Shown one piece after another: positions 6,040 to 27,399 of a stretch of 33,220 nucleotides of DNA. The translations under genes were made by a program, and so were the position numbers. Every line of letters begins with the position of its first letter. Position 1 is the stretch's first letter. Below the pieces are notes generated by a model that did no database searches, was not told where the DNA came from, and saw only the letters and a program-made list of their open reading frames with translations. This DNA is from Bacteroidota bacterium (GTDB taxonomy: Bacteria; Bacteroidota; Bacteroidia; Chitinophagales; Chitinophagaceae). The DNA is taken from contig JAFAAT010000108.1 of assembly GCA_023426425.1 (NCBI GenBank), positions 1-33,220 on the forward strand, in the 5' to 3' direction.

Positions 6040-8289
6040 TTATCTCAGCTTCCACCTCAGTCCTGCGTATATGTTAGTACCCATTACAGGTCCCCAGATC
6101 ATTGATGCATCGAAGCCTTGAGCGTAGGGGTTGTCTGCTCCCATGACAGGCTCGTGCATCATGTAGTTGGTAAGGTTTTCGCCGCCTACATACACTTCGA
6201 AGTTTTCATTGTTCCAGCTCTTGCTGATCTGTGCATTCATCAGCGTGAAGTCGGGTGAACGGGACTCTCCGCTGCTGTGGTGTGCATGCAGTGCGGGTAG
6301 GCGCTTGGAGCTTATCCATTGAATGGTATAATCAAATTTCCAGTTGTTCTTCGTTTCATAGCCAACATTGGCGAAGGCTCTGTGAGTGGCAATGAGTGGT
6401 TTTTCCTTTAGCTCCTGGCCATAGGTGGTGCGTACATCGTACCAACGATAGGCAAGGCGAAGGTCGAGCTTGCGGATGATCTCATAGTCTAACTGAGCCT
6501 GGAAGCTGTTGGCAAACGAGCTGCCATCCAGGTTGTAGAAGCGGACGGTATGCGCGTCTTCCACATCGACCACTACCTGGCTTTCGAAGTCGGTGTAGTA
6601 GTAGTCCATACTAAACGAGCCATCACGATAGTTGAGCATAAATTTCTGGGTAAGGTTCAGGCCAGTATTCCAGGCTACCTCCGGCTCCAGTCCATAGGCT
6701 TTGCCTGCTTCGCCTTTAAGTATTTGAAAGCTTCTGTTGCTAGCGAGGTAACCGGTGTTCTCAGCGAAGATATTTGCTGTGCGTTGCGCCCTGCCTACAG
6801 AACCTCTGATTGCAGTATTCCTGAAAGGTGCATAGCGAACGTGCAGGCGCGGGGTCATAAAGGCACCGAACAGGTTGTGATGGTCTGCGCGGATACCTGC
6901 CACCATGTTCAACTTTTCTGAGTGTGTATAGCTATACTCTGCAAAAGCGCCGGGTACTATTTCCTTTCGGTTGTAAGGGTTGTTGCCGAAGGTTTCATTG
7001 TACTCGTCTATGGTTGTGCTCAATCCCAGTTTTAGTACGTGATTGGTATTGCCGAGGATGGTCTGGTAGATCAGGTTGGAATAGAATGTTTTCTGTAGTG
7101 CGTCATAGTTCCGGCTGCCATAGCGGGCATTCTGGTCATGATAGATCCCTGCCAGCTGTAGTCCGACAGAGGTGCCGGGCTTATTGGCAAACACATGCCC
7201 GATCTTGGCCCAGCCTTCCATCCTTCGGATATTCATTTCAAAGCCCCAGGGCTTGCCTGGCCCTTGCTCCGCACCGGCATTATAGTCCATTTGTCCGCCC
7301 AGGTTATCTACATAGATGCCTTTGACGCCGCCCTGGATTTCCCAGCCTGTAGGACCGAACCAGAACCATCTGTTAGCCACCACAAACTGTTTGTCTACAG
7401 GCTGGTCCATAAAGCCATCGTTGTTCTGGTCGAGCTTCAGCCACTGTGATTTTCCATGGAGGAAAAGGTTTGATGAGAGGTTTTCATTGAACACCCTGCG
7501 GTGGATAATATTTCCCTCAGTGCGCGCCTGGGTACTCTGGTAAAGGTTGAAATGCCATTTCTCTTCTTCCTCTTCAAACGGTTTACGCCATTCTACATTG
7601 ATCTGGCCGGCTACGCTTTCATAGCCATTCACCACACTGCCTGTGCCTTTGCTCAGCTGCATGCCTTCTATCCAGGTGCCGGGCGTGAACGTCAGACCGG
7701 TGATAGAGGCAAGGCCTCGTGAGTCAGGAATATTTTCCCGTGTGATCATTGTGTATGGACCTGCGAGCCCCAGCATCTGGATCTGCTTGTAGCCTGAGAT
7801 GGCATCAGTAAACGCCACATCCACAGAGGGAGTGGTCTCAAAGCTTTCGCTCAGGTTGCAACATGCAGCCTTCAGTAGTTCCCGCGCACCGATGCGTTCT
7901 GTTTTTATCGGGTCGAGCATGCTGATGGTGGTGCTCTTCTGCCGGCTCACAATCTCCACCTCGTTCAGCGTCTTTGGTTGTTGCAGGACAATTTCAATTC
8001 GTCCTGATCCAGGTTTAAGCGCAATTGTATCCGAGGTGTAGCCAATATAGGAAGCTACCAGCGTGTGAAGTGAGTCCGGTACCTGAAGGGAGAACTTGCC
8101 TTCAGCATCTGCCTGTGTGCCCACTTCATGACCCGGTGTCTCGATGGTTACGCCCGGTAGAGGTATCAACTTGCCGGCGGTAGTTTTTTCAGTCACGGAG
8201 CCCTCGATCAGGCGTAGCTCCTGAGCCTGAGAGGCAAAGGCAAGGGGAAGCAATCCGCCCAGCAGCAGCGATTTTAATTTTCGTCTCAT
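6040..8289 (-). CDS. TonB-dependent receptor with CarboxypepD_reg-like N-terminal domain
   Basis: 749 aa with a signal peptide. N-terminal Ig-like segment (GSVTEKTTAGKLIPLPGVTIE...AEGKFSLQV), a plug region, and a long beta-barrel with alternating aromatic/glycine pattern. Last gene of a three-gene minus-strand operon. Confidence 0.9.
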   Translation of the reverse strand: MRRKLKSLLLGGLLPLAFASQAQELRLIEGSVTEKTTAGKLIPLPGVTIETPGHEVGTQADAEGKFSLQVPDSLHTLVASYIGYTSDTIALKPGSGRIEIVLQQPKTLNEVEIVSRQKSTTISMLDPIKTERIGARELLKAACCNLSESFETTPSVDVAFTDAISGYKQIQMLGLAGPYTMITRENIPDSRGLASITGLTFTPGTWIEGMQLSKGTGSVVNGYESVAGQINVEWRKPFEEEEEKWHFNLYQSTQARTEGNIIHRRVFNENLSSNLFLHGKSQWLKLDQNNDGFMDQPVDKQFVVANRWFWFGPTGWEIQGGVKGIYVDNLGGQMDYNAGAEQGPGKPWGFEMNIRRMEGWAKIGHVFANKPGTSVGLQLAGIYHDQNARYGSRNYDALQKTFYSNLIYQTILGNTNHVLKLGLSTTIDEYNETFGNNPYNRKEIVPGAFAEYSYTHSEKLNMVAGIRADHHNLFGAFMTPRLHVRYAPFRNTAIRGSVGRAQRTANIFAENTGYLASNRSFQILKGEAGKAYGLEPEVAWNTGLNLTQKFMLNYRDGSFSMDYYYTDFESQVVVDVEDAHTVRFYNLDGSSFANSFQAQLDYEIIRKLDLRLAYRWYDVRTTYGQELKEKPLIATHRAFANVGYETKNNWKFDYTIQWISSKRLPALHAHHSSGESRSPDFTLMNAQISKSWNNENFEVYVGGENLTNYMMHEPVMGADNPYAQGFDASMIWGPVMGTNIYAGLRWKLR

Positions 8290-8300
8290 GCAGGAGCGGA

Positions 8301-8648
8301 TTAATCGTTACAGCTATTAGTTTTGTACTGACAGCATCCGGGCAGCTTGTTGTAGACGACTTCCGTAGTTGCTACCTTCTCCGAAGAATGGCCTGCGTCA
8401 GCAACGCTTTTCAACACTTCATCTGAGGAAGTCTTGGAAGGGCGGTAGGTAACGATCAGCTGTTTGGTGTCTTTGTTCCATTCAGCTCTTTTGACACCTT
8501 TTACGTAGGCTGCGTTCTCAATGCGTTTTTTACACATGCTGCAGTTTCCGTCTACTTTGAAAGTGTCGGTTTGGATATCCTTGCTATTCTGCGCAAAGGC
8601 GGTTAAGGATGAAAATACGATTGTGAGAAATACTATGAAATGCTTCAT
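8301..8648 (-). CDS. heavy-metal-associated (HMA) domain protein, secreted
   Basis: 115 aa with a signal peptide. CopZ-like metal loop GNCSMCKKRIE (CxxC) and a Cys-rich C-terminus (PGCCQYKTNSC). Ends 12 nt upstream of the receptor gene. Confidence 0.85.
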   Translation of the reverse strand: MKHFIVFLTIVFSSLTAFAQNSKDIQTDTFKVDGNCSMCKKRIENAAYVKGVKRAEWNKDTKQLIVTYRPSKTSSDEVLKSVADAGHSSEKVATTEVVYNKLPGCCQYKTNSCND

Positions 8649-12517: not shown

Positions 12518-13078
12518 ATGAAACAGCATGTTCTGGAAATGATCGCCTTTGCCACATTCACCATGTTTTCCGTTAGCTGTGCTGATAGCACACCAGACAG
12601 CACCCCCTCAGTATCTGAACCCACCACCGCCCTAACCGGACAATCCGGTGTGCAGGATGATGTATCACAGAAGAATGTTGTGCAGGTAGCAGTAGCCAGC
12701 AAAGATCATTCTACTCTGGTGAAGGCAGTTCAACAGGCTGAACTGGTTGATGCGCTGAGCAATGCGGGACCCTTTACTGTTTTTGCTCCGGTGAATGAAG
12801 CTTTTGATAAGCTACCCGGTGGTACAATGGAAGACCTTATGAAGCCTGAAAATAAGGACAAGCTGGCCGACATACTTCAGTATCACGTGTCGGTGGGTGT
12901 GTTTAGGGAAGAAATGCTACAGGATGGACAGAAGATTGGTCAGGTGAATGGCAGCAACATTACCGTCACGAAGAACGGTGCCGACCTGTTTATCAATAAT
13001 TCAGCAAAGGTTATTGCCTCTGTCGTCGCTTCAAATGGTATTGTGTACGTAATTGATGGAGTCCTGTTGCCTGAATAA
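12518..13078 (+). CDS. fasciclin (FAS1) domain protein, secreted
   Basis: 186 aa with a signal peptide. FAS1 signatures HSTLVKAV, GPFTVFAPVNEAF and NGIVYVIDGVLLP. Confidence 0.9.
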   Translation: MKQHVLEMIAFATFTMFSVSCADSTPDSTPSVSEPTTALTGQSGVQDDVSQKNVVQVAVASKDHSTLVKAVQQAELVDALSNAGPFTVFAPVNEAFDKLPGGTMEDLMKPENKDKLADILQYHVSVGVFREEMLQDGQKIGQVNGSNITVTKNGADLFINNSAKVIASVVASNGIVYVIDGVLLPE

Positions 13079-13096: not shown

Positions 13097-13130
13097 AAAC
13101 ACGAAAGCTCCCCGGGAGCTTTCGTGTTTT
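13097..13130. terminator. bidirectional terminator hairpin
   Basis: aaacacgaaagctccc/gggagctttcgtgttt: perfect 16-bp inverted repeat around a 2-nt centre, followed by tt and preceded by tttt, which reads aaaa on the minus strand, so the minus-strand U-run comes only from the aaa inside the stem arm. Sits between the convergent fasciclin and crp/fnr genes and overlaps the stop of the latter. Confidence 0.7.
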
Positions 13131-13857
13131 ACAGGAACGACTGAGGCTGATACAGATTAGCTGTCCGTTTAAGTTTGTTCTGATCAATAATTCTGATTTT
13201 CTTTCCTACGAACCCAATAATTTCCTCGCTCTTAAAGTCCGAAAGCAATCTAATAGTCGTCTCCGTGGCAGTACCTACCAGGTCTGCGATTTCTTCCCTT
13301 GTCAGTAACACATTGATTGTATCGCTGTTTTCTTCAAACCCGTACGTCTCTTTGAGAAACAATAAGCCACGTGCCAGTCTTTCACGTACCGGTCTTTGTG
13401 CAAGCTCTGTTAGATGGTTTTCAGCTTGTTTCAGATCATTAGTCAAAAGCTGAATGATGCCCATTGCCAGCTTCATATTGGAGCTGAGAACTTCAAAAAA
13501 TACATCCTTTGGTATGAAAACAAGGTTGCTGTCTTCTATAGCCACCGCACTAGCGTTATACTTTTCGTGACAAAATAGCGCACGATACCCGAGAAGGTCT
13601 CCAGCTTTGGCCATTCTAAGGATTTGCATCTTCCCGTCGTCCCCGCTGTGTTCGACTTTCACTTTGCCTTTATCAATCCCGTAAATGCCGAGAGGATAGC
13701 TTCCTTCATTGAACACTGGTTGTCCCTTCGGGAAGAACAGGCAGTCTTTTCTTTGATTAAATAGTTCCATCTGTTGGTCTGAAAGACAGGAGAATAAGGA
13801 TTGGTGGGTAAGGTCGCAATCTCCGAAGACCCGGTATGGCGCGTGTTTATGTTTCAT
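13129..13857 (-). CDS. Crp/Fnr family transcriptional regulator
   Basis: 242 aa. cNMP-binding-like beta-roll (FFPKGQPVFNEGSYPLGIYGIDKGKVKV...GDLLGYRALF). C-terminal HTH LTREEIADLVGTATETTIRLLSDFKSEEII. Only two N-terminal Cys (GDCDL, FSCL), so it does not carry the classical four-Cys FNR cluster signature. Confidence 0.9.
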   Translation of the reverse strand: MKHKHAPYRVFGDCDLTHQSLFSCLSDQQMELFNQRKDCLFFPKGQPVFNEGSYPLGIYGIDKGKVKVEHSGDDGKMQILRMAKAGDLLGYRALFCHEKYNASAVAIEDSNLVFIPKDVFFEVLSSNMKLAMGIIQLLTNDLKQAENHLTELAQRPVRERLARGLLFLKETYGFEENSDTINVLLTREEIADLVGTATETTIRLLSDFKSEEIIGFVGKKIRIIDQNKLKRTANLYQPQSFL

Positions 13858-13919: not shown

Positions 13920-13933
13920 CTGACACTAGTCAG
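13920..13933. promoter_or_regulatory. TGAC-N4-GTCA palindrome (ctgacactagtcag)
   Basis: Perfect palindrome 62 nt upstream of the crp/fnr ATG. Its centre is 22 bp from the next box. Confidence 0.5.
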
Positions 13934-13941: not shown

Positions 13942-13955
13942 ATGACATCGGTCAT
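13942..13955. promoter_or_regulatory. TGAC-N4-GTCA palindrome (atgacatcggtcat)
   Basis: Perfect palindrome 47 nt upstream of the TTG start of the cytochrome c/HCO-like operon. Confidence 0.55.
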
Positions 13956-14002: not shown

Positions 14003-14392
14003 TTGAGAAGTGTACTTACCATATTGTCTGTTGTGTTCCTCTGCTATTCGCTGATTGTTTACAAATACAGTGATCCCAGGCAGGGTAGCCTTCGGCCTGG
14101 TGAACAAGTGCTCGCAGGCTGGGACACCTGGCAGCAGAAGAATTGTCAGAGTTGTCACCAGATATACGGCCTGGGTGGTTATGCCGGTCCGGATCTCACT
14201 AATACAGTCCGTCAGCGTTCGCCGGAGTATTTAAAGGCGATAATCAAATCCGGAACAGCAGCCATGCCGGACTTCAGGTTAAGCCCAAAACAGGTTGATG
14301 AACTTGTTGCTTTTCTTGATTGGGTTGATAAAACGGGTGCTTCAAAAGTGCCAGATTCTCTGGTACACTGGACAGGTAGCTATAGACAATGA
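14003..14392 (+). CDS. membrane-anchored mono-haem c-type cytochrome (NorC-position subunit)
   Basis: 129 aa. An in-frame stop at 13994 leaves TTG 14003 as the only start. N-terminal TM helix, single CQSCH haem site followed by GLGGYAGPDLT, and a candidate Met ligand in GTAAMPDF. Stop overlaps the next ATG (ATGA). Confidence 0.8.
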   Translation: MRSVLTILSVVFLCYSLIVYKYSDPRQGSLRPGEQVLAGWDTWQQKNCQSCHQIYGLGGYAGPDLTNTVRQRSPEYLKAIIKSGTAAMPDFRLSPKQVDELVAFLDWVDKTGASKVPDSLVHWTGSYRQ

Positions 14393-15777
14393 ATATGAGC
14401 AAAAGCCTGAAGATATTAACTGGTTTCAGTCTGCTCTTGCTGGCAGCAGCTCTCTTCTTTGGAATGATCAGTGGCTTTGCATTTCTATATCCGGGCAGCT
14501 TTAATGAATACCTCCCTTTTTACCAGCTACGTCCCATGCACGTTTCTGCTGCGTTATTCTGGATTATCTCCGGGGCAACAACAGGTATTCTTTTTTACAA
14601 GCAGCAGGTATTCGGAGCAAAGGAAAACTTTTTGGACAGAACCTTTGTTCTCCTCTGGCTGAGCTCCATTATTGCTGTGTTTGTGTTTTATGCCTTCAAA
14701 CAATTCGGAGGAAGGGAATACTGGGAGTTTCCTCCTTTTTTAGGTATTCCGATTTTGCTTGCATGGTTTTGCCTGATAGGCTCCTACTTTAAGGCGTGGA
14801 GACGGAGACCTGCGCCCACTCCTTTGTATATCTGGATGTGGAGTACCGGAATTATCTTCTTTCTGATCACCTTTCTAGAGCAAAACCTCTATCAGATACC
14901 GTGGTTCAGGGAGTCTTTTCTTCGGGAGCTGACTGTCCAATGGAAGTCTAATGGAGCTATGGTCGGTGCCTGGAATCAAATGATCTATGGCACTTCGTTG
15001 TTTATAGCTGTGAAGTTGTCAGGAGACACAAAAGCTGGGAATAGCAACAAAGCCTTTTTCTTTTACTTCCTGGGGCTTACTAACCTTATGTTCAATTGGG
15101 GTCATCATATTTATAATCTTCCAACCAGCTCATGGATACGCCATATTTCTTATGCCATCAGTATGACTGAATGGATACTGTTCATCAGCATACTCCGCGA
15201 CTTCAGGAAGAAAACTTCGCAACAAAGGCACAGCGGGCGAATTAGCTATAGATTTCTGATAGTTGCGGAGTACTGGGTTTTTGCGAATCTCTGCCTGGCC
15301 CTGATGATGAGTATTCCAGCAATAAACCGTTATACACACGGCACGCATATCACTGTAGCTCATGCCATGGGGGCAACAATAGGAATCAATTCAATGATAC
15401 TGCTTGCTTCCCTGGCAACAATGCTGAAGGTTGACAGGCTTGCTTTAAGGCGCAGACAGAATATCAGGTTCGCCTTCAGGATTTTTCAGTTTGCATTTGT
15501 TGTCTTCTGGCTAGCACTGATTGTTGCTGGTGTTCTTAAAGGATACAGGGAAGTAGCGCTGGGGATTGCCGATTTCCAGATCGTCATGAAACCCATTTGG
15601 CCGGTATTGCTGGTTTTTGTCCTTGCAGGAGTGGTCATGTTTGTCAGTATGGTCTCCATTGTCTTTCAGTTTATCTCAGCACTGCGACTGCCTCCTTTGT
15701 CTGCTACAGCAGGCCTACCTGTCGCCACCACAACTCAGATACCAGCGAGTGCAGAAAAGCCAAAACAACTTATATGA
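14389..15777 (+). CDS. haem-copper oxidase superfamily subunit I-like protein (cNOR/cbb3-like, atypical ligand set)
   Basis: 462 aa with about 12 TM helices. Motifs LRPMH51 (helix-II-like), NWGH239H240IY (helix-VII-like HH) and THGTHITVAH325AM327GATIG (helix-X-like). There is no His between residues 52 and 238. Confidence 0.8.
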   Translation: MNMSKSLKILTGFSLLLLAAALFFGMISGFAFLYPGSFNEYLPFYQLRPMHVSAALFWIISGATTGILFYKQQVFGAKENFLDRTFVLLWLSSIIAVFVFYAFKQFGGREYWEFPPFLGIPILLAWFCLIGSYFKAWRRRPAPTPLYIWMWSTGIIFFLITFLEQNLYQIPWFRESFLRELTVQWKSNGAMVGAWNQMIYGTSLFIAVKLSGDTKAGNSNKAFFFYFLGLTNLMFNWGHHIYNLPTSSWIRHISYAISMTEWILFISILRDFRKKTSQQRHSGRISYRFLIVAEYWVFANLCLALMMSIPAINRYTHGTHITVAHAMGATIGINSMILLASLATMLKVDRLALRRRQNIRFAFRIFQFAFVVFWLALIVAGVLKGYREVALGIADFQIVMKPIWPVLLVFVLAGVVMFVSMVSIVFQFISALRLPPLSATAGLPVATTTQIPASAEKPKQLI

Positions 15778-16487
15778 GAAATCAGATGCTCTATTTTTTC
15801 GTATTGATACTAACTCTTTCCTCCTGCCAGAAGAAGGATCAGCTGGCATCATCCGGAACTTTAAGCCTGAGTATTCTTCATCACGTAGATGGAAAATCAC
15901 TGAGTTTTGATTCTGTTTTGTTCCTAAATGCTTCAGGAGAGCTCTATAGTGTTACAAGGTTGGAATATTATCTAAGCAGCTTCCGGCTCTACCACAAGGG
16001 TGAAGTCGAATATAGCGCGGACAGCGTTTATTATATCAATGCCCGGGACAGCGCCCTAACAATCGTACTGTCACAGGTGCCCGTCGGACATTATGATTCC
16101 ATGAGCTTCTTCATTGGCCTTAGTCCGGCATTAAACATGCATGGACAACTGCACCCGACGCCTGCTAACGTAGCTATGCAATGGCCGGAAGTAATGGGTG
16201 GTGGTTATCATTTTCTGAAGTTTGAAGGCCATTGGGTAGATGGTGTTGCGCAGTCTGGTTTTGCTATCCACGTGGGTACCGATCCTTTTTTGATCTATGC
16301 CGGTTGTAATAGTGATATGACTATTGCAGATGGCAAGACAACAGCCTCGCTGCGAATGAATGTGAATGAATGGCTGCGGAATCCTCATCAGTTTAGTTTC
16401 AAAACAGATGGAGTATATACTATGGATAGTGGCCCACTTATGGACAAGATCAGGAAGAATGGGGGCGATGTTTTCACTTTAAACTAA
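15774..16487 (+). CDS. MbnP-like lipoprotein
   Basis: Start trimmed to ATG 15774, which forms an ATGA overlap with the upstream stop. Lipoprotein signal LTLSSC. Motif MQWPEVMGGGYHFLKFEGHW resembles the MbnP family, which is paired with a di-haem peroxidase. Confidence 0.7.
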   Translation: MRNQMLYFFVLILTLSSCQKKDQLASSGTLSLSILHHVDGKSLSFDSVLFLNASGELYSVTRLEYYLSSFRLYHKGEVEYSADSVYYINARDSALTIVLSQVPVGHYDSMSFFIGLSPALNMHGQLHPTPANVAMQWPEVMGGGYHFLKFEGHWVDGVAQSGFAIHVGTDPFLIYAGCNSDMTIADGKTTASLRMNVNEWLRNPHQFSFKTDGVYTMDSGPLMDKIRKNGGDVFTLN

Positions 16488-17539
16488 TGTTTATGCGCAC
16501 AGTGCTGTTCGTCGTGACAATGCTTTCTTTATCTGTCTTTTCCTGCAAAAGTGATCAGGCAAACAAGGATGACAACCCAGAGCCCGAGCCGCCAGTGGAT
16601 ACGTCCATTGTCCTGACGCCCTATGAGATTATTCCTCCTGCCCACTTTCCGGAAATGGCCATTCCAGCAGATAATCAACCGTACGTGGAGCGTATAAAGC
16701 TCGGTAGAATGCTTTACTATGATCCTGTGTTGTCCAACGATGGCAGGGCCTGTGCCAGTTGCCACCACCAGTCTAAAGGGTTTACAATAGATGGGATGGT
16801 TGGAGGCATGCCTGTCCTGCCTCACGTGAATCTTGGCTGGTCAAATAAGTTTATGTGGAATGGTTCTGAGCAGGGTACGCTGGAGGACGTGATGCATTTT
16901 GAGGTAGCAAGTTTCTTTGGTACCGACCTTAATAAAATTAACCAGGATACTGCCTATAGAAGATTGTTCAGAAAACACTTCGGTGTCAACTACATAACGT
17001 ACAAGGAGCTTTCCTATGCGTTGGCACAATTTGTACGAACTATGATCTCCAGGGATTCGAAGTACGACAGGTACATTTCGGGACAGGCGCAACTGGAGTA
17101 TAATGAAATGAAAGGTCGAAATATCTTCTTTTCTGAAAAAGGCGATTGTTTTCACTGTCATATCAACCCTGTGATGACTGATAATGACTTACACAACACG
17201 GGCCTTGACAGCATTTATTCCAAAGAAATAGACAAGGGGTACTTCAATGTTACAGGGAAGATTTCAGATCTGGGAAAATTCAGGACACCAAACCTTCGCA
17301 ACGTAGCCTTGAGAAAGAACTTCATGCACGACGGACGATTTAAAAGCCTCGAAGAAGTGGTGGAATTTTATAACAGTGGGGTCCGCCGGGTCGACAACCT
17401 CGATCCTATCATGACCAAGCCAGGCAAGGAGAAAGGTTTGAACCTTACCCCAGAGGAAAAATTCCAGTTGGTATCGTTCCTGAAAACACTAACTGATGAA
17501 CAATTCCTGAATGATTCAACTTTAACAAAACTGGATTAA
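16487..17539 (+). CDS. di-haem cytochrome c peroxidase / MauG / MbnH-like enzyme
   Basis: 350 aa with a signal peptide. Two haem c sites (CASCHH and CFHCH). CCP-family motifs (FRTPNLRNVA, MHDGRF). Start forms a TAATG overlap with the MbnP-like stop. Confidence 0.9.
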   Translation: MFMRTVLFVVTMLSLSVFSCKSDQANKDDNPEPEPPVDTSIVLTPYEIIPPAHFPEMAIPADNQPYVERIKLGRMLYYDPVLSNDGRACASCHHQSKGFTIDGMVGGMPVLPHVNLGWSNKFMWNGSEQGTLEDVMHFEVASFFGTDLNKINQDTAYRRLFRKHFGVNYITYKELSYALAQFVRTMISRDSKYDRYISGQAQLEYNEMKGRNIFFSEKGDCFHCHINPVMTDNDLHNTGLDSIYSKEIDKGYFNVTGKISDLGKFRTPNLRNVALRKNFMHDGRFKSLEEVVEFYNSGVRRVDNLDPIMTKPGKEKGLNLTPEEKFQLVSFLKTLTDEQFLNDSTLTKLD

Positions 17540-17557: not shown

Positions 17558-17582
17558 TGGTATTTTGTATAACTTTGTAGCA

Positions 17583-18077
17583 ATGAAAGAGCCCAAACCA
17601 ATCAAAAGAAGTAAGGAGCTGATGCAACTGTCGCGGGATCATCACCTGGGACTTTTGCTATGCTGGAAGATCAGGACTGGCCTTTCAAACAATATTGATG
17701 AGGAACGGATAAAAGCCTACGTAGTGGCGGCGTATGCTCAGGAACTAAAAGAGCATTTTTATCAGGAGGAACAGCTGCTTTTCAATCCTATGCCTGAGGA
17801 TGACCTGATGGTTTGTAAAGCTATCGAGCAGCACAGTGCGATTCGTGATCTTGAGCAACAGATTAGTGTAGCACAACAGCCCGCTAAAGAACTGTTAACT
17901 CAATTTGCAGACTTACTGGAACAGCATATAAGATATGAAGAGCGGGAGCTTTTCCCATACCTGGAGGCGGCATTGGATGCAGAAACTTTATCAATAGCTG
18001 GCGCAGCAGTTGATAAGTATCATGAAACCGCTGAGCCATTGAATTGGTCAGATGAATTTTGGATAAGGAAAAGGTAA
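17583..18077 (+). CDS. hemerythrin (HHE cation-binding) domain protein
   Basis: The ORF track start at 17565 is TTG. ATG 17583 gives MKEPKPIKR...; ATG 17622 (MQLSRDHH) is an alternative. Motifs LSRDHH, EEQLLF, EQHSA and HIRYEERELFP. Confidence 0.8.
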   Translation: MKEPKPIKRSKELMQLSRDHHLGLLLCWKIRTGLSNNIDEERIKAYVVAAYAQELKEHFYQEEQLLFNPMPEDDLMVCKAIEQHSAIRDLEQQISVAQQPAKELLTQFADLLEQHIRYEERELFPYLEAALDAETLSIAGAAVDKYHETAEPLNWSDEFWIRKR

Positions 18078-18079
18078 TT

Positions 18080-18511
18080 ATGTTTTCAAAAGCTTGTGAA
18101 TATGCGATAAGAGCTGCAGTCTATATAGCTGCAGAAACAGACGAAACTAAGAAAGTAGGTATCCAGGACATTTGCATACAAATAGAGGCTCCACAACATT
18201 TTACTGCCAAAATTCTTCAGATACTTACCCGAAAGCAGATCGTAAGCTCACAAAAGGGAGTGAACGGCGGATTTTACTTAAACAAAATACAGAAAAACAC
18301 ACCCATACGAGAGATAGTTGTAGCAGTAGACGGTGCCAAAGTATTTACAGGGTGCGGACTTGGGTTGAAGCAATGTTCAGAAGAAAAGCCCTGTCCCATT
18401 CACAACCAGTTTAAAGAATTGAGATCCAGGCTAAATAAGATGATGGAGCAAACCACTATAGAAATGCTGGGCAGGCGACTGAAGAATGGCGAGTCGGTAC
18501 TGGTACAATAA
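18080..18511 (+). CDS. Rrf2 family transcriptional regulator (NsrR/IscR-like, Fe-S type)
   Basis: Start trimmed to ATG 18080 (MFSKACEYAIRAAVY), 2 nt after the hemerythrin stop. Winged HTH followed by C-x6-C-x5-C-x2-H (GCGLGLKQCSEEKPCPIH), a cluster-ligand spacing close to IscR/NsrR. Confidence 0.9.
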   Translation: MFSKACEYAIRAAVYIAAETDETKKVGIQDICIQIEAPQHFTAKILQILTRKQIVSSQKGVNGGFYLNKIQKNTPIREIVVAVDGAKVFTGCGLGLKQCSEEKPCPIHNQFKELRSRLNKMMEQTTIEMLGRRLKNGESVLVQ

Positions 18512-19840: not shown

Positions 19841-20767
19841 ATGAACAACGTAACAATCGACGTGACGGCTCTGGAACCCAGAATGAAGCACCCAACTATC
19901 TTTGATGCCTTCGACTCAATAGGTGCAGGTGGCACTGTCTTAATCCACAATGATCACGATCCTAAGCCACTATATTATCAGCTACTGGGTGAGAGAGGAA
20001 ATTGCTTTTCCTGGACCTATCTGGCTAATGGTCCGGAAGTTTGGGAAGTGGAAATCAGGAAGAATGGCGCAAATGGAGAGACAGTAGGGGAGATAGCGGC
20101 AAAGGATATGCGTAAGGCTGAGTTGCTGAAGAAACTGGGTATTGACTTCTGCTGTGGTGGAAAGAAATCCCTGGAAGATGCCTGTGCTGAAAAGGGACTA
20201 GATGTGAACAAGGTGAAGGCTGAATTGGAGCAATCGGAGAAAATGCCTGCCACTGGTCCACAACTTGACTTCAACACATTTTCTGCATCTTTTCTTGCAG
20301 ACTATATTCAGAACGTGCACCACGGCTATGTGAACAAGAATGCACCGATGATTGAGGATCTGGCGCAAAAGGTAGCTGCGCATCATGGGCAGCACGTACC
20401 CTTATTGGTTGCTGTGTATAGAAAGGTCAATGAGCTTTGTTCGGAATTGCTCACACACATGAAGAAGGAAGAACAGGTGCTGTTTCCAACTATCAAGCTG
20501 CTGGAGAGTGGTGGCATGGTGAAGATTGGATTTGATTCTATTAATGATCCGATTTTCGTAATGGAAAGAGACCATGACATAGCGGGCGAACTGATGCGCG
20601 ATATCCGTCAGCTTACGCATGACTTCCAGGTGCCTGAAGGTGCCTGCAACAGCATTAGAATGCTGTATTTTAAGCTGGAAGAGTTTGAGTCTGATTTGCT
20701 GCAGCATATCCACCTTGAGAATAATATCCTTTTTCCGAAGGCTGCTGCGCTGGAACAGAAGAATTAG
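19841..20767 (+). CDS. iron-sulfur cluster repair di-iron protein (RIC/YtfE/ScdA) with N-terminal DUF2249-like module
   Basis: 308 aa. Residues 1-75 carry the DUF2249-like signature (RMKHPTIFDAF...LIHNDHDPKPLYYQL...GPEVWEVEI). Then an ScdA_N motif (LGIDFCCGGKKSLEDAC). Then a hemerythrin-like di-iron domain (HHGYV...EEQVLFP...ERDHD...HIHLENNILFP). Confidence 0.85.
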   Translation: MNNVTIDVTALEPRMKHPTIFDAFDSIGAGGTVLIHNDHDPKPLYYQLLGERGNCFSWTYLANGPEVWEVEIRKNGANGETVGEIAAKDMRKAELLKKLGIDFCCGGKKSLEDACAEKGLDVNKVKAELEQSEKMPATGPQLDFNTFSASFLADYIQNVHHGYVNKNAPMIEDLAQKVAAHHGQHVPLLVAVYRKVNELCSELLTHMKKEEQVLFPTIKLLESGGMVKIGFDSINDPIFVMERDHDIAGELMRDIRQLTHDFQVPEGACNSIRMLYFKLEEFESDLLQHIHLENNILFPKAAALEQKN

Positions 20768-20775: not shown

Positions 20776-20798
20776 AAAGGCGCAGCAATTGCGCCTTT
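20776..20798 (+). terminator. intra-cluster hairpin (terminator/attenuator-like)
   Basis: aaaggcgca-gcaat-tgcgccttt: 9-bp stem with a 5-nt loop, whose 3' arm ends in ttt, followed by ctaattt. Sits in the 45-nt gap between RIC and the DUF1858/DUF2249 gene. Confidence 0.5.
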
Positions 20799-20812
20799 CT
20801 AATTTCCTTGTC

Positions 20813-21613
20813 ATGACCATTATTAATTCCCGTACAAAGATATCCGCACTTATTAAAGCCAATCCTGGTGCCATAGAGGCGCTTGCGAGTATCAACAGTC
20901 ATTTCCATAAGCTTCGTAGCCCTTTTCTAAGAAAGATTCTTGCAGCCAGAGTAACCATAGCTGAGGCTGCAAAAATGGGAGGTGTCACAATTGCTGCTTT
21001 TTATGAAAGGCTGATACCGTTGGGATTTCAGGTTCAGGGCGACGAACAGGAAGTCGCGGAACGCGCCGTATCTATTGAAGGAGACCATCTTCAGGCATTT
21101 GACCGGCAACTGGATGTTACGGAAGACCTAAACCAGGGTAAAGACCCGTTCAGGGTGATTATGAAAGAGGTGAATGAACTAAGGCAGGGTGAAGTGCTTC
21201 AACTGGTCAGTCCGTTTGAACCTGTGCCGCTGATAAGAGTGCTTACAGAAAGAGGACTTGAAGCAAAGTCGTTTTCGAAGTCCGCAGATGAATGGTTTAC
21301 CTACATCAGGATGAATGGCGCAATTGAAGACGGCAAACCTGCTGCTCCTGGGAGCGGGGATTTTGAAGCGGTGCTTTCGAGATTTGAAGGTAAGGCTCAG
21401 ACTGTGGATGTAAGGCAGCTACCTATGCCTCAGCCAATGATGACTATTTTGAGCAGGCTTGAGGAGCTGCGTGAGGGGGAAGCATTATTTGTGCATCATA
21501 AAAAGGTGCCCATGTTTCTTCTTCCACAACTGACAGAAAAAGGATGGGCTTATACCTATCGCAGTGCTGGGGAGGGAGTGGAAATGATAATCTACAGAGA
21601 AGTAGCCGAATGA
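20813..21613 (+). CDS. DUF1858 + 2x DUF2249-like domain protein
   Basis: The ORF track start at 20789 is TTG; ATG 20813 gives MTIINSRTKISALIK. N-terminal DUF1858-like segment (ISALIKANPGAIEAL...TIAEAAKMGGV). Then two modules with the DUF2249-like pattern (LDVTEDL...LRQGEVLQLVSPFEPVPL; VDVRQLPMPQPMM...LREGEALFVHHKKVPMFL). Confidence 0.7.
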   Translation: MTIINSRTKISALIKANPGAIEALASINSHFHKLRSPFLRKILAARVTIAEAAKMGGVTIAAFYERLIPLGFQVQGDEQEVAERAVSIEGDHLQAFDRQLDVTEDLNQGKDPFRVIMKEVNELRQGEVLQLVSPFEPVPLIRVLTERGLEAKSFSKSADEWFTYIRMNGAIEDGKPAAPGSGDFEAVLSRFEGKAQTVDVRQLPMPQPMMTILSRLEELREGEALFVHHKKVPMFLLPQLTEKGWAYTYRSAGEGVEMIIYREVAE

Positions 21614-22881
21614 AACCAGCGGAGGAACATATACCCCCCAGGATAACCATACTTCCTTACTATGTCGCGGGAGGGTTTAGCTTCCTGCTGGTTTCCCTGA
21701 TGTGTGTTTCCTCAAGTGAGTCGTTGCTTGGTCACTACTTCACACCCAGACTGCTTGCCATCACTCATTTGGCTGTACTTGGCTGGGCCACCATGGTTAT
21801 CTTCGGGGCGAGCAACCAGCTTGCGCCTGTGATTGCTGAAAGGAGATTGTACAGTGAGCGGATACCCGTAGTCGTTTTTTTGTTTAAGGTGGTGGGGATC
21901 GCGATACTCGTATTTTCATTCTGGGTGTTTCAGCTGGGGGTACTCAGCTATGCAGGTGCGGGGCTATTGATTGCTGCCATATTACTTCATGCTATCAACC
22001 TTTACAAGACAGCCGCCAGGGGAAAGGAGGATATTGTAAAAGATCTATTCATTGTCTCGCATTTCTGGCTGGTGTTAACCGCATTGATTGGTCTGACATT
22101 GCTGCTGAACCTTCGTTTTGCATTTCTTTCCGAAGATCATCTGCATTACCTGAGGGTGCATTCATTGATCGGCATGGGTGGTTGGTTTCTTCAGTTGGTC
22201 ATAGGTGTGAGCTCAAGACTTATACCCATGTTTTTGTTAAGCGCCAATGAGGAGCGTAAGTCGTTGCAGGCATCATTCTACCTGCTGAACGGGGCTATGT
22301 TGCTTTTCTTTCTTGAGGGGATGGTGCTGGGTACAAGAGCGGGTGGACCTCTATGCCTGCTGATGGTTGGAGCAGCCATAGTGCTGTATGCAAGGTATGT
22401 CAACAGGTGTCGTAAGACGGCTATGAGAAAGCAAGCGGACGCGGGTATGCAGCAGAGTTTTCTTGCTATTGTACTGCTGATGGCTGCTATAGTACTATTG
22501 AGCTTTCTTTTGTCTATCGCAGGTCAGGAGCAACCTCGCCTGATGGTGGCTTTTGGGTTTTCATTTTTCACTGGTTTTATCTCCCTTCTTATTCTAGGGC
22601 AAACATTCAAGACACTGCCATTTATAGTCTGGATGCATCTGGTGAGCCATGAATCCCTGCCCGGTGTCATGCCGAAGGACCTCTATAGCGAGAGGTGGGT
22701 TCGTATTCAGATGATCCTGTTCCTGCTGTCCTTCCTGGTGTCGGTGTCCTCAATAATTTTAGGACTGCAACTTTTGCTAGTGGTTGGATTAAGCCTTTTA
22801 AGCCTTACTGCTGCTCTTTATTTTGGTCATGTGCTATATATCATTTCAAAACTGAAGAACTATGAACCTCACCATATCTGA
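21610..22881 (+). CDS. polytopic His-rich membrane protein, function unknown
   Basis: Start trimmed to ATG 21610, which forms an ATGA overlap with the upstream stop. 423 aa with about 12 TM helices. Recurrent motif [HG]-x3-4-G-[WF]-x5-6-G-x4-L-x-P (ITHLAVLGWATMVIFGASNQLAP; VHSLIGMGGWFLQLVIGVSSRLIP; FFTGFISLLILGQTFKTLP). Confidence 0.7.
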   Translation: MKPAEEHIPPRITILPYYVAGGFSFLLVSLMCVSSSESLLGHYFTPRLLAITHLAVLGWATMVIFGASNQLAPVIAERRLYSERIPVVVFLFKVVGIAILVFSFWVFQLGVLSYAGAGLLIAAILLHAINLYKTAARGKEDIVKDLFIVSHFWLVLTALIGLTLLLNLRFAFLSEDHLHYLRVHSLIGMGGWFLQLVIGVSSRLIPMFLLSANEERKSLQASFYLLNGAMLLFFLEGMVLGTRAGGPLCLLMVGAAIVLYARYVNRCRKTAMRKQADAGMQQSFLAIVLLMAAIVLLSFLLSIAGQEQPRLMVAFGFSFFTGFISLLILGQTFKTLPFIVWMHLVSHESLPGVMPKDLYSERWVRIQMILFLLSFLVSVSSIILGLQLLLVVGLSLLSLTAALYFGHVLYIISKLKNYEPHHI

Positions 22882-23194
22882 TTCAAGTTATAACCTGGAG
22901 CTACAGGTGCTGAATGCACTTTATGAAGTAAATGACCCGGAGCTGAACATCAATATCGTAGATCTTGGACTGGTATATGAGGTAAGAGTGGATGAGGTGG
23001 CCGGACAGATCATGATAGAAATGACCCTTTCGACCCGTTCCTGTCCGCTTGGAGGATTAATTACCAGTCATGTGAAGGTTGCTGCAGAGGGGGCGTTGCC
23101 GGGGTATACTGCAGAAGTGAACCTGGTTTGGAGTCCGAAATGGACTTCGGACCGAATCTCCGAAGCCGGGAGAGCAGCGCTTGGGTGGGAGTAG
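22862..23194 (+). CDS. DUF59/MIP18-family metal-sulfur cluster assembly factor (SufT/PaaD-like)
   Basis: 110 aa. Motifs VNDPELNINIVDLGLVYEV and MTLSTRSCPL with the conserved Cys. Start overlaps the upstream gene by 20 nt. Confidence 0.85.
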   Translation: MNLTISDSSYNLELQVLNALYEVNDPELNINIVDLGLVYEVRVDEVAGQIMIEMTLSTRSCPLGGLITSHVKVAAEGALPGYTAEVNLVWSPKWTSDRISEAGRAALGWE

Positions 23195-23568: not shown

Positions 23569-24336
23569 CTATAGATCCTTTTTCCGGAAAATTCTGACAG
23601 AAAGGATCAGCGGAATAAGGATCCAAAACAGCATGCAGCATACAGAGAATATACTTCCTGTGGCGGATCCCAGGAACTGCTTGAACAATGCACCGGAATA
23701 GCCCATCAATACAGCTACATCGAGTTGCAGGAGCATCAGAACTCTTGCAAGGTCGATGGGGTTGAAGGCGATGATGCCAATCACTGCCTGGTCGATGGGG
23801 TAGTCGCTGAAGGAATAGATGAAGGCGATGAGCAGGCCGTCGAAGAGCAAAGTGAAGAACAGGGCTGTAATGAGTGCAATGCCTATGCCTTTGGTTTTGT
23901 CTTTCGACCTGACGAAGATGAGCAGTGCAAGAGACGAGAAGATGAGCGTCAGAAGAATTCCGGTAAGAACCAGAATCAGAGACTCAGTGCCTGAAACAAG
24001 AAATAGTAGCGGAATTCCTACGCCTACTGCGTATGCTGCTGAAAGTGAAAATGCTACGCCGATAAATTCTGAGAGCAGCACCTTTTGTCTTTTGATGGGT
24101 TGTGACAGCAGTAGTTCTGTGAATTCCACTGAGTTGAAGAAGTAGATGGTGGAGAACAGGATGGTGATGATGGGTACGAAGAGCAGTGTGACGTTTAAAA
24201 GGCTGAGCAGACCTTTGGCAGGGTTTTCATCGATATTGAGCACGCCGAGAGAGAGAACAATCAGCAGAATGGTATAGACGAGGATTGTCCTGTTGCGGAA
24301 AAGGTCGAGAAGTACGTATTTAACTATGGTTTTCAT
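23569..24336 (-). CDS. nosY: NosY, ABC-2 type permease of the Nos maturation transporter
   Basis: 255 aa with 6 TM helices. ATGA overlap with the nosF stop. Last gene of the nos operon. Confidence 0.85.
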   Translation of the reverse strand: MKTIVKYVLLDLFRNRTILVYTILLIVLSLGVLNIDENPAKGLLSLLNVTLLFVPIITILFSTIYFFNSVEFTELLLSQPIKRQKVLLSEFIGVAFSLSAAYAVGVGIPLLFLVSGTESLILVLTGILLTLIFSSLALLIFVRSKDKTKGIGIALITALFFTLLFDGLLIAFIYSFSDYPIDQAVIGIIAFNPIDLARVLMLLQLDVAVLMGYSGALFKQFLGSATGSIFSVCCMLFWILIPLILSVRIFRKKDL

Positions 24337-25064
24337 TGCTGGCTAAGTCTTGATTCGGGCAGTTGAGTTTGTATGACCTGTGCGATAACCCTGTTCAGGC
24401 GTTCTTCACCGGTAGTGCGTTTAAGTTCGTCAACTGATTTATAGAACATGAGGTTTCCGTCCTGCAGGTAGATGATATCGCTGGCGATACCTTCCAGGTC
24501 GCTGAGGACGTGAGAGGTAATCAGGATCAGTTTGCCTGCTGCGCGCTCTTTGATCATTTTATCTTTCAGGAGCTCACTGGAGACAGGGTCGAGGCCTGCG
24601 GTTGGTTCATCGAGGATGTATATTTCCGGAGAAAAGAGGAAGGCCAGGGATGCGCTTACTTTCTGTCTTGTGCCACCGGAAAGGCTTCGCATGGTTTTGT
24701 GTTTCATTTTGTTGAGGCCAAACCCATGGATCAGCTCTTCGTCATAGGAAGTATGTAAGGGTCTCAGCTCTTTGATCAGGTTGATTACCTGCTCAATGGA
24801 CATGTTATCAGGATAGCGGCCAATCTGGGGCATGTAGCCGATTTTAGACCGGTAGCCCCAATCTGATTTGACTACGTGGCCATTGATGGTAATGGTGCCT
24901 TTTTGTGGAATGACGAGACCAAGGATTGACTTGATCAGAGTTGTTTTGCCGGAGCCATTGGGGCCAAGCAGTGAAATCGCCTGCCCCTGTGACATTTCGA
25001 GGTTGATATTGTCAAGGGCGGTGAACTTGCCGAACTTTTTTGTTAGTTGCTCAATTTTGATCAT
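24333..25064 (-). CDS. nosF: NosF, ABC transporter ATP-binding protein
   Basis: Walker A GPNGSGKTT, signature LSGGTRQK, Walker B ILDEPTAGLD. Start set to ATG 25064, which forms an ATGA overlap with the nosD stop. The ORF track start at 25073 is GTG. Confidence 0.9.
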   Translation of the reverse strand: MIKIEQLTKKFGKFTALDNINLEMSQGQAISLLGPNGSGKTTLIKSILGLVIPQKGTITINGHVVKSDWGYRSKIGYMPQIGRYPDNMSIEQVINLIKELRPLHTSYDEELIHGFGLNKMKHKTMRSLSGGTRQKVSASLAFLFSPEIYILDEPTAGLDPVSSELLKDKMIKERAAGKLILITSHVLSDLEGIASDIIYLQDGNLMFYKSVDELKRTTGEERLNRVIAQVIQTQLPESRLSQQ

Positions 25065-26293: not shown

Positions 26294-26294
26294 G

Positions 26295-26714
26295 TTATTG
26301 AATATTTTCCCAGCTGGTAAAGCTGATTCCCAGGCTGTCTGCAATAGGAGCTCCATCTTCTTCGGAGGAAAAGGCGGCATAGTTGCCGTTCATTGGACTG
26401 CGGAAGAAGTCGTGCTTGAGGAATTTGGCGGTCTTTGCGTCAAGCATGCCATCTGTTTTGTTATGGTAGTCTTCTACAAAGAGCAGGTCATTTGGTGATG
26501 GTTCGAGTGTTGATATAAACTGCCTGAGGCAGGTGATATCATCAAACTTGTAGACTTTGCCTTTGGCGTCTACCATTTCAGCGCCATATCTTTCGTCCAT
26601 GATCGTCATCCGGCAATGTGCGCAGGCGTCCTTACCATAGTTGACCGGTTCAAATTTTCTGGAGCAGGAGACTAGCAAAAGGCATGCGGTAGCAACGATA
26701 AATAGATTTTTCAT
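26295..26714 (-). CDS. nosL: NosL, copper-chaperone lipoprotein
   Basis: 139 aa. Lipoprotein signal LLVSCS, motif CAHCRMTI, and a size and position typical of NosL. Confidence 0.85.
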   Translation of the reverse strand: MKNLFIVATACLLLVSCSRKFEPVNYGKDACAHCRMTIMDERYGAEMVDAKGKVYKFDDITCLRQFISTLEPSPNDLLFVEDYHNKTDGMLDAKTAKFLKHDFFRSPMNGNYAAFSSEEDGAPIADSLGISFTSWENIQ

Positions 26715-26738
26715 TCGAGCTGGTTTTAGATGAGCAGG

Positions 26739-27338
26739 TCAGGTTGCAATAGTACGAGACTTTGCGATTCTTCCTCTTCGCCATTCGTAGAAGCTGATGC
26801 CGACCAGGATAATACCGGCGATGATGAAGAACCAACCGCCGATGTCTGGCTGGGAAAGTGCTTCAAAATTCAGCATTTTTTTATAGCCGATGAGTGGAGG
26901 CTGGTATGCCATGCCGGGTACTTTGATTGGTGCAGTGGGATCGAGGTTGTGACCGTATTCATATTCCCACCTCCAGAAGTCGTACATAGAGGCGCCGGCA
27001 ATGATCAGGAACAAGGCGGTCCAGATATAGTAGCCAATTTTCCGGTTCCAAAGAAATACACCTAATCCAAGCACGCAGAAGGAAATGAAAGCGATGGGCA
27101 GATAAATGAATTCTTTGAAGTCAGATTCTTTGATGGTGGCCATGCCGATGTAGTGGTTAAGGCCGTTGATGATTTCCACGTCGCCGGAGAGGTGGTCAAT
27201 CCAGATGTTCATATAGATGCCTTCGGGATACTGAGGTGCGGCAAGGTCTATTCGCCACATTGGGAAGAACCATAGCATTGCGATACAGGCGATCACAAAG
27301 AACACGCTCAGCCGACCCGGCATACTTAGTTTAGTCAT
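26739..27338 (-). CDS. NosB-like integral membrane protein
   Basis: About 199 aa from ATG 27338; the ORF track start at 27365 is GTG and ATG 27323 is an alternative. About 5 TM helices. Sits immediately downstream of nosZ, as described for clade II nos clusters. Confidence 0.7.
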   Translation of the reverse strand: MTKLSMPGRLSVFFVIACIAMLWFFPMWRIDLAAPQYPEGIYMNIWIDHLSGDVEIINGLNHYIGMATIKESDFKEFIYLPIAFISFCVLGLGVFLWNRKIGYYIWTALFLIIAGASMYDFWRWEYEYGHNLDPTAPIKVPGMAYQPPLIGYKKMLNFEALSQPDIGGWFFIIAGIILVGISFYEWRRGRIAKSRTIAT

Positions 27339-27399
27339 GGGAGTAAAATAATAATGGCAGTACACCTAAAGGAATAGTGTACTGCCATTGGGTTAAATA

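Follow-up and report, generated by a model that had tools for sequence, protein, structure and literature searches.

A widespread NorCB-like gene pair of Bacteroidota with a rebuilt active site, possibly a variant of cytochrome-c-dependent NO reductase

The stretch of DNA analysed here comprises positions 1 to 33,220 of contig JAFAAT010000108.1 (GenBank assembly GCA_023426425.1), from a Bacteroidota bacterium of the Chitinophagaceae; its full length of 33,220 nucleotides (nt) is referred to as the window. Our subject is a pair of genes at 14003-15777 that resembles norC and norB, which encode cytochrome-c-dependent nitric oxide (NO) reductase (cNOR). The first gene encodes a mono-haem cytochrome c and the second a subunit I of the haem-copper oxidase (HCO) superfamily, and an ATGA overlap joins the two open reading frames (ORFs; for the coordinates of these and all other features see Table 1). 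The small subunit has a hydrophobic N-terminal anchor, the haem c motif C48-x-x-C51-H52 and an axial methionine, M88. It matched the Pfam families Cytochrome_CBB3 (E=1.2e-13) and Cytochrom_C, and its best match in the PDB was NorC of Pseudomonas aeruginosa (3o0r_C, E=2.7e-12), which it resembles over its full length (residues 11-117). The CxxCH motif, the axial methionine and residues G58 and Y60 align with the haem c ligands and the Ca2+-ligand Gly/Tyr of NorC and are kept in the family. Across 71 family sequences the haem c motif was invariant, and N47, C48, C51, H52, G58, G59, M88 and P89 were conserved in at least 97%. The two genes occurred as a pair in 78 of 80 related loci. Together with the structural matches of the large subunit to NorB and CcoN given below, the ORFs, their overlap and the match to 3o0r_C bear out the norCB-like layout claimed in the original prediction, which had been made from the sequence of the window alone.

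The large subunit matched Pfam COX1 over residues 10-414 (E=3.2e-22), and an AlphaFold2 model built on 43 homologues showed 12 long helices with a mean pLDDT of 87.2 and a pTM of 0.89. The top Foldseek matches of this model were the cNOR subunits NorB 4xyd_A and 3o0r_B (E of about 1e-9, TM-score 0.73-0.79, 17-18% identity), followed by CcoN of cbb3 oxidases (TM-score 0.74-0.78) and, more weakly, by qNOR (query-normalised TM-score 0.58-0.65). When a profile of the family was compared with PDB sequences, NorB scored 46 bits and CcoN 43 bits. The NCBIfam model for CcoN (TIGR00780) gave the large subunit 33.7 bits against a cut-off of 583, and the NCBIfam NorB models did not match it. Database labels for the family conflict, with NCBI using 'cbb3-type cytochrome c oxidase subunit I' and JGI 'nitric oxide reductase subunit B'. 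By these comparisons the family lies in the C-family/cNOR branch of the HCO superfamily, at about equal distance from both and with a NorC-type partner. Its nearest relatives are thus cNOR and cbb3 and its partner is a cytochrome c, not a cupredoxin, which sets it apart from the B-family NO reductases nNOR, gNOR, eNOR and sNOR.

A homologue search of 5.8 billion proteins returned more than 3000 matches, and relatives turned up in at least 533 species when one genome per GTDB species was scanned. The named records were nearly all Bacteroidota, belonging to the orders Chitinophagales, Flavobacteriales and Sphingobacteriales. When 1.84 billion representatives at 50% identity were searched exhaustively with phmmer, only 342 clusters reached E<=0.001, and hence the family is set off sharply from those of cNOR, qNOR and cbb3, which are very large. 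Cultured carriers include Chitinophaga sancti, Filimonas effusa, Pedobacter sp. AW31-3R, Pararcticibacter amylolyticus and Amniculibacterium. A few distant relatives of about 800 amino acids (aa; P0139, P0150, P0159, P0187) join the HCO subunit to a segment resembling FixO (CcoO) and to one or two additional cytochrome c domains.

Alignment to NorB and CcoN was used to assign the cofactor ligands of the large subunit. The motifs LRPMH51, GH239H240 and VAH325AM327G (the core of the last encoded by cat gcc atg, 15361-15369) were found, and the histidines in them that the original prediction had listed as retained are indeed present. In helix II, H51 corresponds to the residue that ligates the low-spin haem. 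H239 and H240 match the two adjacent histidines of helix VII that serve the FeB/CuB site, and H325 matches the histidine that binds the high-spin haem on its proximal side. At the position where cNOR supplies a second histidine to the low-spin haem stands M327, so that the H-A-M in place of H-x-H noted at the outset was confirmed. E110 and E113 in GGREYWE align with the Ca2+/propionate-site motifs GREFLEQ of cNOR and SKEYAE of cbb3, and E261 aligns with the glutamate of S-A-L-E-V-V in cNOR. We take this glutamate to be Glu280 in P. aeruginosa numbering, and NorB Glu135 with NorC Gly71/Tyr73 to be the Ca2+ site. The histidines of the large subunit are at positions 51, 239, 240, 252, 281, 317, 320 and 325 only. 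None lies between 52 and 238, which confirms the predicted absence of the helix-VI histidine whichever alignment register is adopted.

Two registers were obtained for helix VI. In the first, an ungapped alignment anchored on a shared lysine at +21 (K-L-T-G in cNOR, K-L-S-G here), N188, V192 and N196 fall in the columns of His207, Glu211 and Glu215, respectively. In the second, obtained with HMMER against cbb3 and with MAFFT, G189 stands at the histidine column and a one-residue deletion falls at Glu211. Equating Q184 with His207 and N188 with Glu211, as had been proposed initially, is therefore about four residues, or one helical turn, out of register; three alignments put the histidine column at N188 or G189. 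The column of the cross-linked tyrosine of cbb3 (Tyr251) is filled by M234, and no conserved tyrosine replaces it there or on helix VI. As far as these alignments go, the large subunit lacks ligands that define cbb3 oxidases and ligands that define cNOR.

We then compared the large subunit with its best 120 homologues (54-69% identity) among the more than 3000. In all 120, H51, Q184, W185, K186, N188, G189, G193, W195, N196, H239, H240, E261, H317, H320, H325 and M327 were identical; E110 was kept in 119, and 128 of the 462 positions were at least 95% conserved. The substitutions are thus conserved in orthologues, a point that the original prediction had left for checking. A frameshift, a pseudogene or a degenerate pseudo-enzyme was ruled out, since neither ORF is interrupted and none of the unusual residues varies among these 120 homologues. 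On this pattern of conservation, the gene pair represents a real, strongly conserved family with a rebuilt active site that is under purifying selection, and the methionine and the missing histidine are traits of the whole family rather than signs of decay.

The same data bear on the idea that the protein is a non-catalytic relic, a haem-based sensor or a scaffold that has kept the fold and lost the chemistry, a sensor or non-redox role having been raised at the start. Such an idea would fit the loss of two of the six canonical histidines of HCOs and the fact that no genes for FeB insertion were seen among the recurrent neighbours. However, the replaced positions and all remaining cofactor ligands are strongly conserved across hundreds of species, the electron-donor subunit is conserved and translationally coupled, and an output domain is lacking. 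With the haem c site, the haem axial ligands, the helix-VII histidine pair and the Ca2+-site residues all conserved, we regard a relic or sensor as extremely unlikely.

The wider family was surveyed with 86 full-length representatives, down to 23% identity. H51, E110, H239, H240, H325 and M327 were nearly universal, with M327 present in about 95% of the distant members, and two types of active site could be told apart. The first, found in about 64 of the 86 and including the protein from the window, combines Q-W-K186, G189 and E261. The second, found in about 20 of the 86, combines Q-W-H186, D189 and A261, often with a third histidine at position 241; its sources were metagenome-assembled genomes (MAGs) of Opitutales, Parvularculaceae and Saprospirales. 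The exchange of Lys186 plus Glu261 for His186 plus Asp189 suggests that these residues may do the job of the lost helix-VI His/Glu, although it amounts essentially to one phylogenetic split. Residue N188, by comparison, is mostly tyrosine, and also methionine or leucine, in relatives at 33-45% identity (methionine in cultured Amniculibacterium), while K186 and E261 persist. This weakens N188 as a key replacement ligand and makes it a feature of a sub-clade, not a family-defining ligand. The type-2 sister group (P0209, P0222-P0270, P0333-P0415; an example is locus L081, 8001-9230) was itself small, with about 100 clusters at 90% identity, and showed Q-W-H-x-x-D before helix VI, G-H-H-H on helix VII, the same H-x-M motif and a small cytochrome c partner.

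Compared with cNOR, the pair shares the norC-norB layout, full-length homology to NorC including CxxCH, the axial methionine and the Ca2+-site Gly/Tyr, 12 transmembrane helices, the helix-II histidine, the helix-VII HH, the helix-X proximal histidine, the GRE...E motif and E261 as the Glu280 equivalent. It differs in its low identity to cNOR, in the replacement of His207 by N188/G189, of Glu211 by V192 or a gap and of Glu215 by N196, in methionine instead of histidine as second ligand of haem b, in the invariant Q-W-K186 before helix VI, and in that norQ/norD were not seen nearby. Genes of the norQ/norD type, which serve FeB insertion, are common but not universal in cNOR clusters.

The likeness to CcoN (PDB 3mk7, 9g6b), which lies in the fold, the profile scores, the V-Q-W motif before helix VI and the (S/G)-x-E-Y motif of the Ca2+ site, raises the question of a divergent cbb3-like high-affinity O2 reductase expressed at low oxygen. 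The NCBI name, the FixO-like fusions in some relatives and an FNR-like operator upstream of the pair (see below) would be in keeping with such an enzyme. Its probability is nevertheless very low in our estimate. All characterised O2-reducing HCOs have both three CuB histidines and the cross-linked tyrosine (Murali et al, 2024; PMC11214002), whereas here the helix-VI member of the three histidines is missing and the tyrosine column holds Met234, and these two absences make O2 reduction an unfavoured reaction. The score of TIGR00780 is far below its cut-off, the low-spin haem b is predicted to be ligated by His/Met, and the small subunit is like NorC and not like CcoO or CcoP.

Ligation of the low-spin haem by histidine and methionine, as predicted here from M327, has been described for nNOR, where it is argued to raise the potential of that haem (Murali et al, 2024; PMC11214002). 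nNOR is otherwise different, being of B-family descent, with a CuA-type subunit and a cNOR-like site of three His plus Glu, whereas the pair belongs to the C/cNOR branch and combines a NorC subunit with the absence of such a site. Since the lineages, subunits and second sites differ, the His/Met haem would be convergent. Replacement of a metal-ligand histidine has precedents in the putative NO dismutase (NOD; His to Asn; PMC3413370) and in gNOR (His to Asp; PMC11214002), and the most distant relatives of the large subunit carry Asp at the G189 column. Neither has Q-W-K or a NorC partner, however: gNOR derives from the B family and has a cupredoxin subunit, and NOD is a single-subunit derivative of qNOR with a haem-less cytochrome c domain and no electron entry.

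By analogy with the putative NODs, the family might convert N-oxides in another way, in a site poor in protons; NO dismutation (2 NO -> N2 + O2) and the oxidation or scavenging of NO would be examples. As in the putative NODs (PMC3413370), a ligand histidine has been lost, with Asn at or next to its column, and amides or non-polar residues take the place of catalytic glutamates, with V192/G193 at the position of Glu211 and N196 at that of Glu215; many Asn and Gln in the helix VI-VII region are invariant. NODs, however, have neither a haem c nor a quinol site by which electrons could enter (PMC3413370). The pair keeps a conserved haem c subunit and some relatives add further cytochrome c domains, which favours a net redox reaction. 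In addition, Glu261 is kept at the Glu280 position and N188 is not conserved in distant members. A reaction of this kind is therefore improbable.

The neighbourhood of the pair was compared in the 80 related loci, with neighbour clusters defined as those shared by at least 3 loci within +-7 kb. In the window, the pair heads a tightly spaced string of plus-strand genes that ends at a FeS_assembly_P protein, and a divergent gene for a Crp/Fnr-family transcription factor lies upstream; the NCBIfam matches of this regulator to Fnr/FixK-type models were all under their cut-offs.

Table 1. Positions of the gene pair, of key residues and of neighbouring features in the window.
Feature	Position	Strand	Basis or remark
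NorC-like membrane-anchored mono-haem cytochrome c, 129 aa, TTG start	14003-14392	+	ORF, Pfam, PDB match
Haem c motif C48-x-x-C51-H52	14144-14158	+	
Axial M88	14264-14266	+	
NorB/CcoN-like HCO subunit I, 462 aa, 12 transmembrane helices	14389-15777	+	ORF, Pfam, model
ATGA overlap of the two ORFs	ATG 14389-14391; TGA 14390-14392	+	
Codon of H51	14539-14541	+	
Codons of Q184-W185-K186	14938-14946	+	
Codon of N188	14950-14952	+	
Codons of H239-H240	15103-15108	+	
Codon of E261	15169-15171	+	
Codon of H325	15361-15363	+	
Codon of M327	15367-15369	+	
TGAY-N4-RTCA palindromes (two), putative Crp/Fnr-type operator	13921-13932; 13943-13954		82 and 60 nt upstream of the cytochrome c start
Crp/Fnr-family transcription factor, divergent from the pair	13129-13857	-	Pfam cNMP_binding 7.5e-20, HTH_Crp_2 2.1e-15
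MbnP-family periplasmic copper-binding lipoprotein	15774-16487	+	Pfam MbnP 5.5e-25; start overlaps HCO stop (ATGA)
MbnH-family di-haem peroxidase-like partner of MbnP	16487-17539	+	Pfam CCP_MauG 1.5e-31
Hemerythrin-domain protein, conserved His/Glu motifs	17565-18077	+	Pfam Hemerythrin 5.4e-14
Rrf2-family regulator	18059-18511	+	Pfam Rrf2 2.8e-23; NCBIfam rrf2_super 88 bits
orf417, polytopic membrane protein, 417 aa	18575-19828	+	Alignment, synteny
DUF2249 plus RIC/ScdA di-iron protein (iron-centre repair)	19841-20767	+	TIGR03652 FeS_repair_RIC 236.5 bits, cut-off 204.7
DUF1858-DUF2249 protein, orf445 and FeS_assembly_P protein, tail of the plus-strand string	20789-23194	+	Co-occur in 8-9 of 80 loci
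orf445, polytopic membrane protein	21544-22881	+	
Clade II-type nos cluster: cytochrome c, NosZ, membrane protein, NosL, NosD, NosF, NosY	23569-29901	-	
208-aa membrane protein between nosZ and nosL	26739-27365	-	
TGAY-N4-RTCA palindromes (two, at 29977 and 30030)	29977-30041		Just upstream of the nos operon, whose cytochrome c starts at 29901 (-)
orf585, 585-aa soluble protein	30451-32208	-	
Fasciclin-domain gene	12518-13078		Palindromes ahead
HMA-domain/TonB-dependent-receptor pair	6040-8648		Palindrome ahead

The usual gene order among the related loci was cytochrome c, HCO, hemerythrin, Rrf2, orf417 and RIC/ScdA, with each of the associated genes present in about 20-31 of the 80. The hemerythrin gene lay directly 3' of the HCO gene in about 20 loci, the Rrf2 gene was present in 31, and the DUF2249-RIC/ScdA protein, which contains the Pfam domains ScdA_N and Hemerythrin, in about 30. 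The Rrf2 protein carries C99-x6-C106-x5-C112-x2-H115, a ligand set of the Fe-S type as in IscR/NsrR, and these Cys/His residues were kept in 34 sequences. The gene for orf417 follows that for Rrf2 in about 30 loci; its product matched no Pfam or NCBIfam family and, in a profile search, no PDB sequence, and it has invariant histidines in H43-A-H45-S-H47-F and at H179 and H311. It may belong to the NO-stress cluster as a membrane protein that binds metal or haem and has so far escaped notice. In the tail of the string, orf445 has invariant H64, H75 and H206; its only match was one of 18.5 bits to a cbb3 subunit I/II model, and a profile search against PDB sequences matched nothing. Its gene stands between those for the DUF1858-DUF2249 and FeS_assembly_P proteins and was found with them in 8 of the 80 loci.

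In the window, the genes for MbnP and MbnH stand between the HCO gene and the hemerythrin gene. The MbnH-family protein matched TIGR04039 with 1.2e-58 and 199 bits, under the cut-off of 363 bits. MbnP/MbnH occurred near the pair in about 11 of the 80 loci, directly after the HCO gene in two of these (L061, L074) and elsewhere a few kb off or divergent upstream. Overlapping stop and start codons couple their translation to that of the HCO gene, and this placement suggests that the regulon has a need for copper, either for NosZ or for the HCO itself.

In about 25-28 of the 80 loci, genes for nitrous oxide (N2O) reduction lay no more than 8 kb from the pair. The cluster in the window matched the Pfam families nos_propeller (6e-34), NosD (2.5e-36), NosL, ABC_tran and ABC2_membrane_2. 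The membrane protein between nosZ and nosL, which could be assigned to no family, stands in the same place in about 20 related loci and may be a NosB-like component of clade II nos clusters in Bacteroidota. Beyond the nos cluster, orf585 has no family match; it lies a few kb from the HCO pair in 17-20 of the 80 loci.

The palindrome TGAY-N4-RTCA occurs 11 times in the window against 2.3 expected, a number reached in 0 of 100 shuffles. At least 8 of the 11 are intergenic and stand ahead of operons (8688, 12338, 12390, 13921, 13943, 29977, 30030 and 32272); besides the pair and nos, the targets are the fasciclin gene (two palindromes), orf585 (one) and the HMA-domain/TonB-receptor pair (one). 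Of 70 related loci, 43 had it upstream of the gene for cytochrome c, compared with 0.05 expected per 230 nt. Within 150 nt upstream it preceded 61% of the cytochrome c genes, 81% of the fasciclin genes, 60% of those for MbnP and 59% of those for orf585, as against 11% of other genes and 0-5% of operon-internal genes. It was also found ahead of stand-alone pairs in Amniculibacterium and Pedobacter isolates. Boxes of the FNR consensus TTGAT-N4-ATCAA were seen in only 3 loci, the enriched motif being the looser TGAY-N4-RTCA. A TGA-N6-TCA core is typical of Crp/Fnr-family sites, and the palindrome is a putative operator that the neighbouring Crp/Fnr-family regulator would bind. It would define a putative Crp/Fnr-type regulon comprising the cytochrome c-HCO pair, nos, the fasciclin gene, orf585 and the HMA/TonB-receptor pair.

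The proximity of nos genes is relevant to a published suggestion. Murali et al (2024; PMC11214002) described a cNOR-related, Tyr-less HCO family with unprecedented active-site features in 293 GTDB genomes as a putative 'N2O red', and suggested that it might account for an N2O reductase activity of Flexibacter canadensis that is bound to membranes and insensitive to acetylene and sulfide. The family studied here is quite probably the same one, to go by the published description, the branch, the phylum and the abundance: both lie near cNOR in the C-family branch, lack the tyrosine, have a novel active site, are linked to Bacteroidetes and occur in hundreds of genomes. They differ in that the gene context of the pair points more to NO.

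If the suggestion holds, the pair would be a haem-based, NosZ-independent N2O reductase (N2O + 2 e- + 2 H+ -> N2 + H2O). The family fits the description of 'N2O red' in its cNOR/cbb3 branch and its largely Bacteroidota membership, with at least 533 species in a larger GTDB release; the pair is often beside nos genes and has an operator in common with the nos operon, and copper-acquisition genes (MbnP/MbnH) lie within its operon. The source, on the other hand, offers a suggestion only ('might serve') and no assay (PMC11214002). A complete NosZ system sits alongside the pair in the window and in about one third of loci, so that a second N2O reductase would be redundant there, and the linked RIC/ScdA, hemerythrin and Fe-S Rrf2 proteins point to NO, not N2O. 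Solitalea (Flexibacter) canadensis could not be confirmed as a carrier, since it was not among the 120 matches listed in a homologue search seeded with a member of the Sphingobacteriales, and a membrane-associated clade II NosZ could explain the old F. canadensis phenotype. On balance we consider NosZ-independent N2O reduction unlikely.

The reading that we favour, with a rough probability of 0.45, is that the pair is a cytochrome-c-dependent NO reductase variant of the cNOR type with a rebuilt second site. The family conserves the entry of electrons through haem c, the two haem sites of the large subunit, the Ca2+ site and Glu261, which points to a working redox enzyme of this type, and the co-transcribed NO-damage genes and the operator in common with nos point to an NO-related role at low oxygen. 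Electrons would pass from a periplasmic c-type cytochrome to the haem c of the NorC-like subunit (C48xxC51H52, M88) and on to the low-spin haem of the large subunit on His51/Met327, whose potential is expected to be higher than that of a bis-His haem. They would then reach the high-spin haem on His325, which would face the second site. At that site H239 and H240 are kept and the helix-VI His/Glu are lost; Lys186 (in Q-W-K) and Glu261 are fixed instead, with Asn188 in a sub-clade. A Ca2+ site bridging the haems, made of E110 and of G58 and Y60 of the small subunit, would be retained. The likeliest reaction would be 2 NO + 2 e- + 2 H+ -> N2O + H2O, in NO detoxification or NO respiration at low oxygen; in loci with a neighbouring nos cluster, NosZ would take over the N2O produced. 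Expression would probably be driven from the Crp/Fnr-type operator common to the nos operon, and in this lineage the pair would be co-transcribed with NO-damage functions (hemerythrin, Fe-S Rrf2 regulator, RIC/ScdA). Gene structure, homology, conservation, synteny and the operator motif were observed directly. Which cofactors are bound, whether there is a second metal and of what kind, which substrate is used, what K186 and E261 do and how the pair is regulated are all inferred from sequence and gene context.

Several observations weigh against an NO reductase. Both cNOR FeB ligands, His207 and Glu211, are absent from the large subunit, and its many invariant carboxamides, such as N188, N196 and Q197, which stand where carboxylates would be, recall the proton-poor site proposed for NO dismutase (PMC3413370). 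The nearness of K186 and E261 to the haem is an estimate from alignment. About half of the loci, among them those in the complete genomes of isolates of Amniculibacterium and Pedobacter, have the pair by itself and surrounded by housekeeping genes, which makes the NO/N2O context lineage-specific. Neither nirK nor nirS was among the recurrent neighbours in the 80 loci, no nitrite reductase gene was found beside the pair, and AAA+/VWA families of the norQ/norD type were not found among the neighbour clusters of at least 3 of the 80 loci, which were inspected by sequence and some of them also with hidden Markov models. A Cloacibacterium strain, CB-01, was reported with a 'cNor' and only minor NO reductase activity (PMC11168931); this 'cNor' could not be tied to the NorCB-like family, and if it is a member, it would speak against an efficient NO reductase. 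Two MAG loci resembling Weeksellaceae (L010, L024) were considered as Cloacibacterium and rejected, as they look high in G+C. Finally, no biochemical, structural or genetic study of the family was found in the searched literature. In this respect the original prediction of an uncharacterised enzyme stands, but the family had probably been flagged already by Murali et al (2024). Because the FeB histidine and Glu211 are gone, metal-insertion genes are not seen nearby and the NO context holds for only part of the family, our confidence in the variant NO reductase is limited.

A further possibility concerns the chemistry of the pocket itself. Lys186, Glu261, His239 and His240 might form, beside the His-ligated high-spin haem, a new kind of HCO site, either with copper supplied via MbnP/MbnH or with no second metal, and support chemistry new to the superfamily, be it NosZ-independent N2O reduction or another N-oxide conversion. 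We consider this doubtful.

NO reductases are a biological source of N2O, and to our knowledge NosZ is the only established N2O sink. The family is widespread in Bacteroidota of soil, freshwater and wastewater (in genomes of at least 533 species), often beside clade II nosZ. Because databases label it 'cbb3 oxidase' or 'norB', genome-based predictions of N2O makers and consumers rest on an unproven annotation. If the pair is an NO reductase, many 'non-denitrifying N2O reducers' would also be able to make N2O from NO; if it is an N2O reductase, it would constitute a second biological N2O sink; and if the pocket does hold new chemistry, Bacteroidota would be unrecognised N2O sinks or sources. 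With two of the six signature histidines broken under strong selection, the family is a natural experiment on what the second metal site needs, and its function is directly testable because cultured carriers exist. The pair may thus affect how Bacteroidota make or consume the greenhouse gas N2O.

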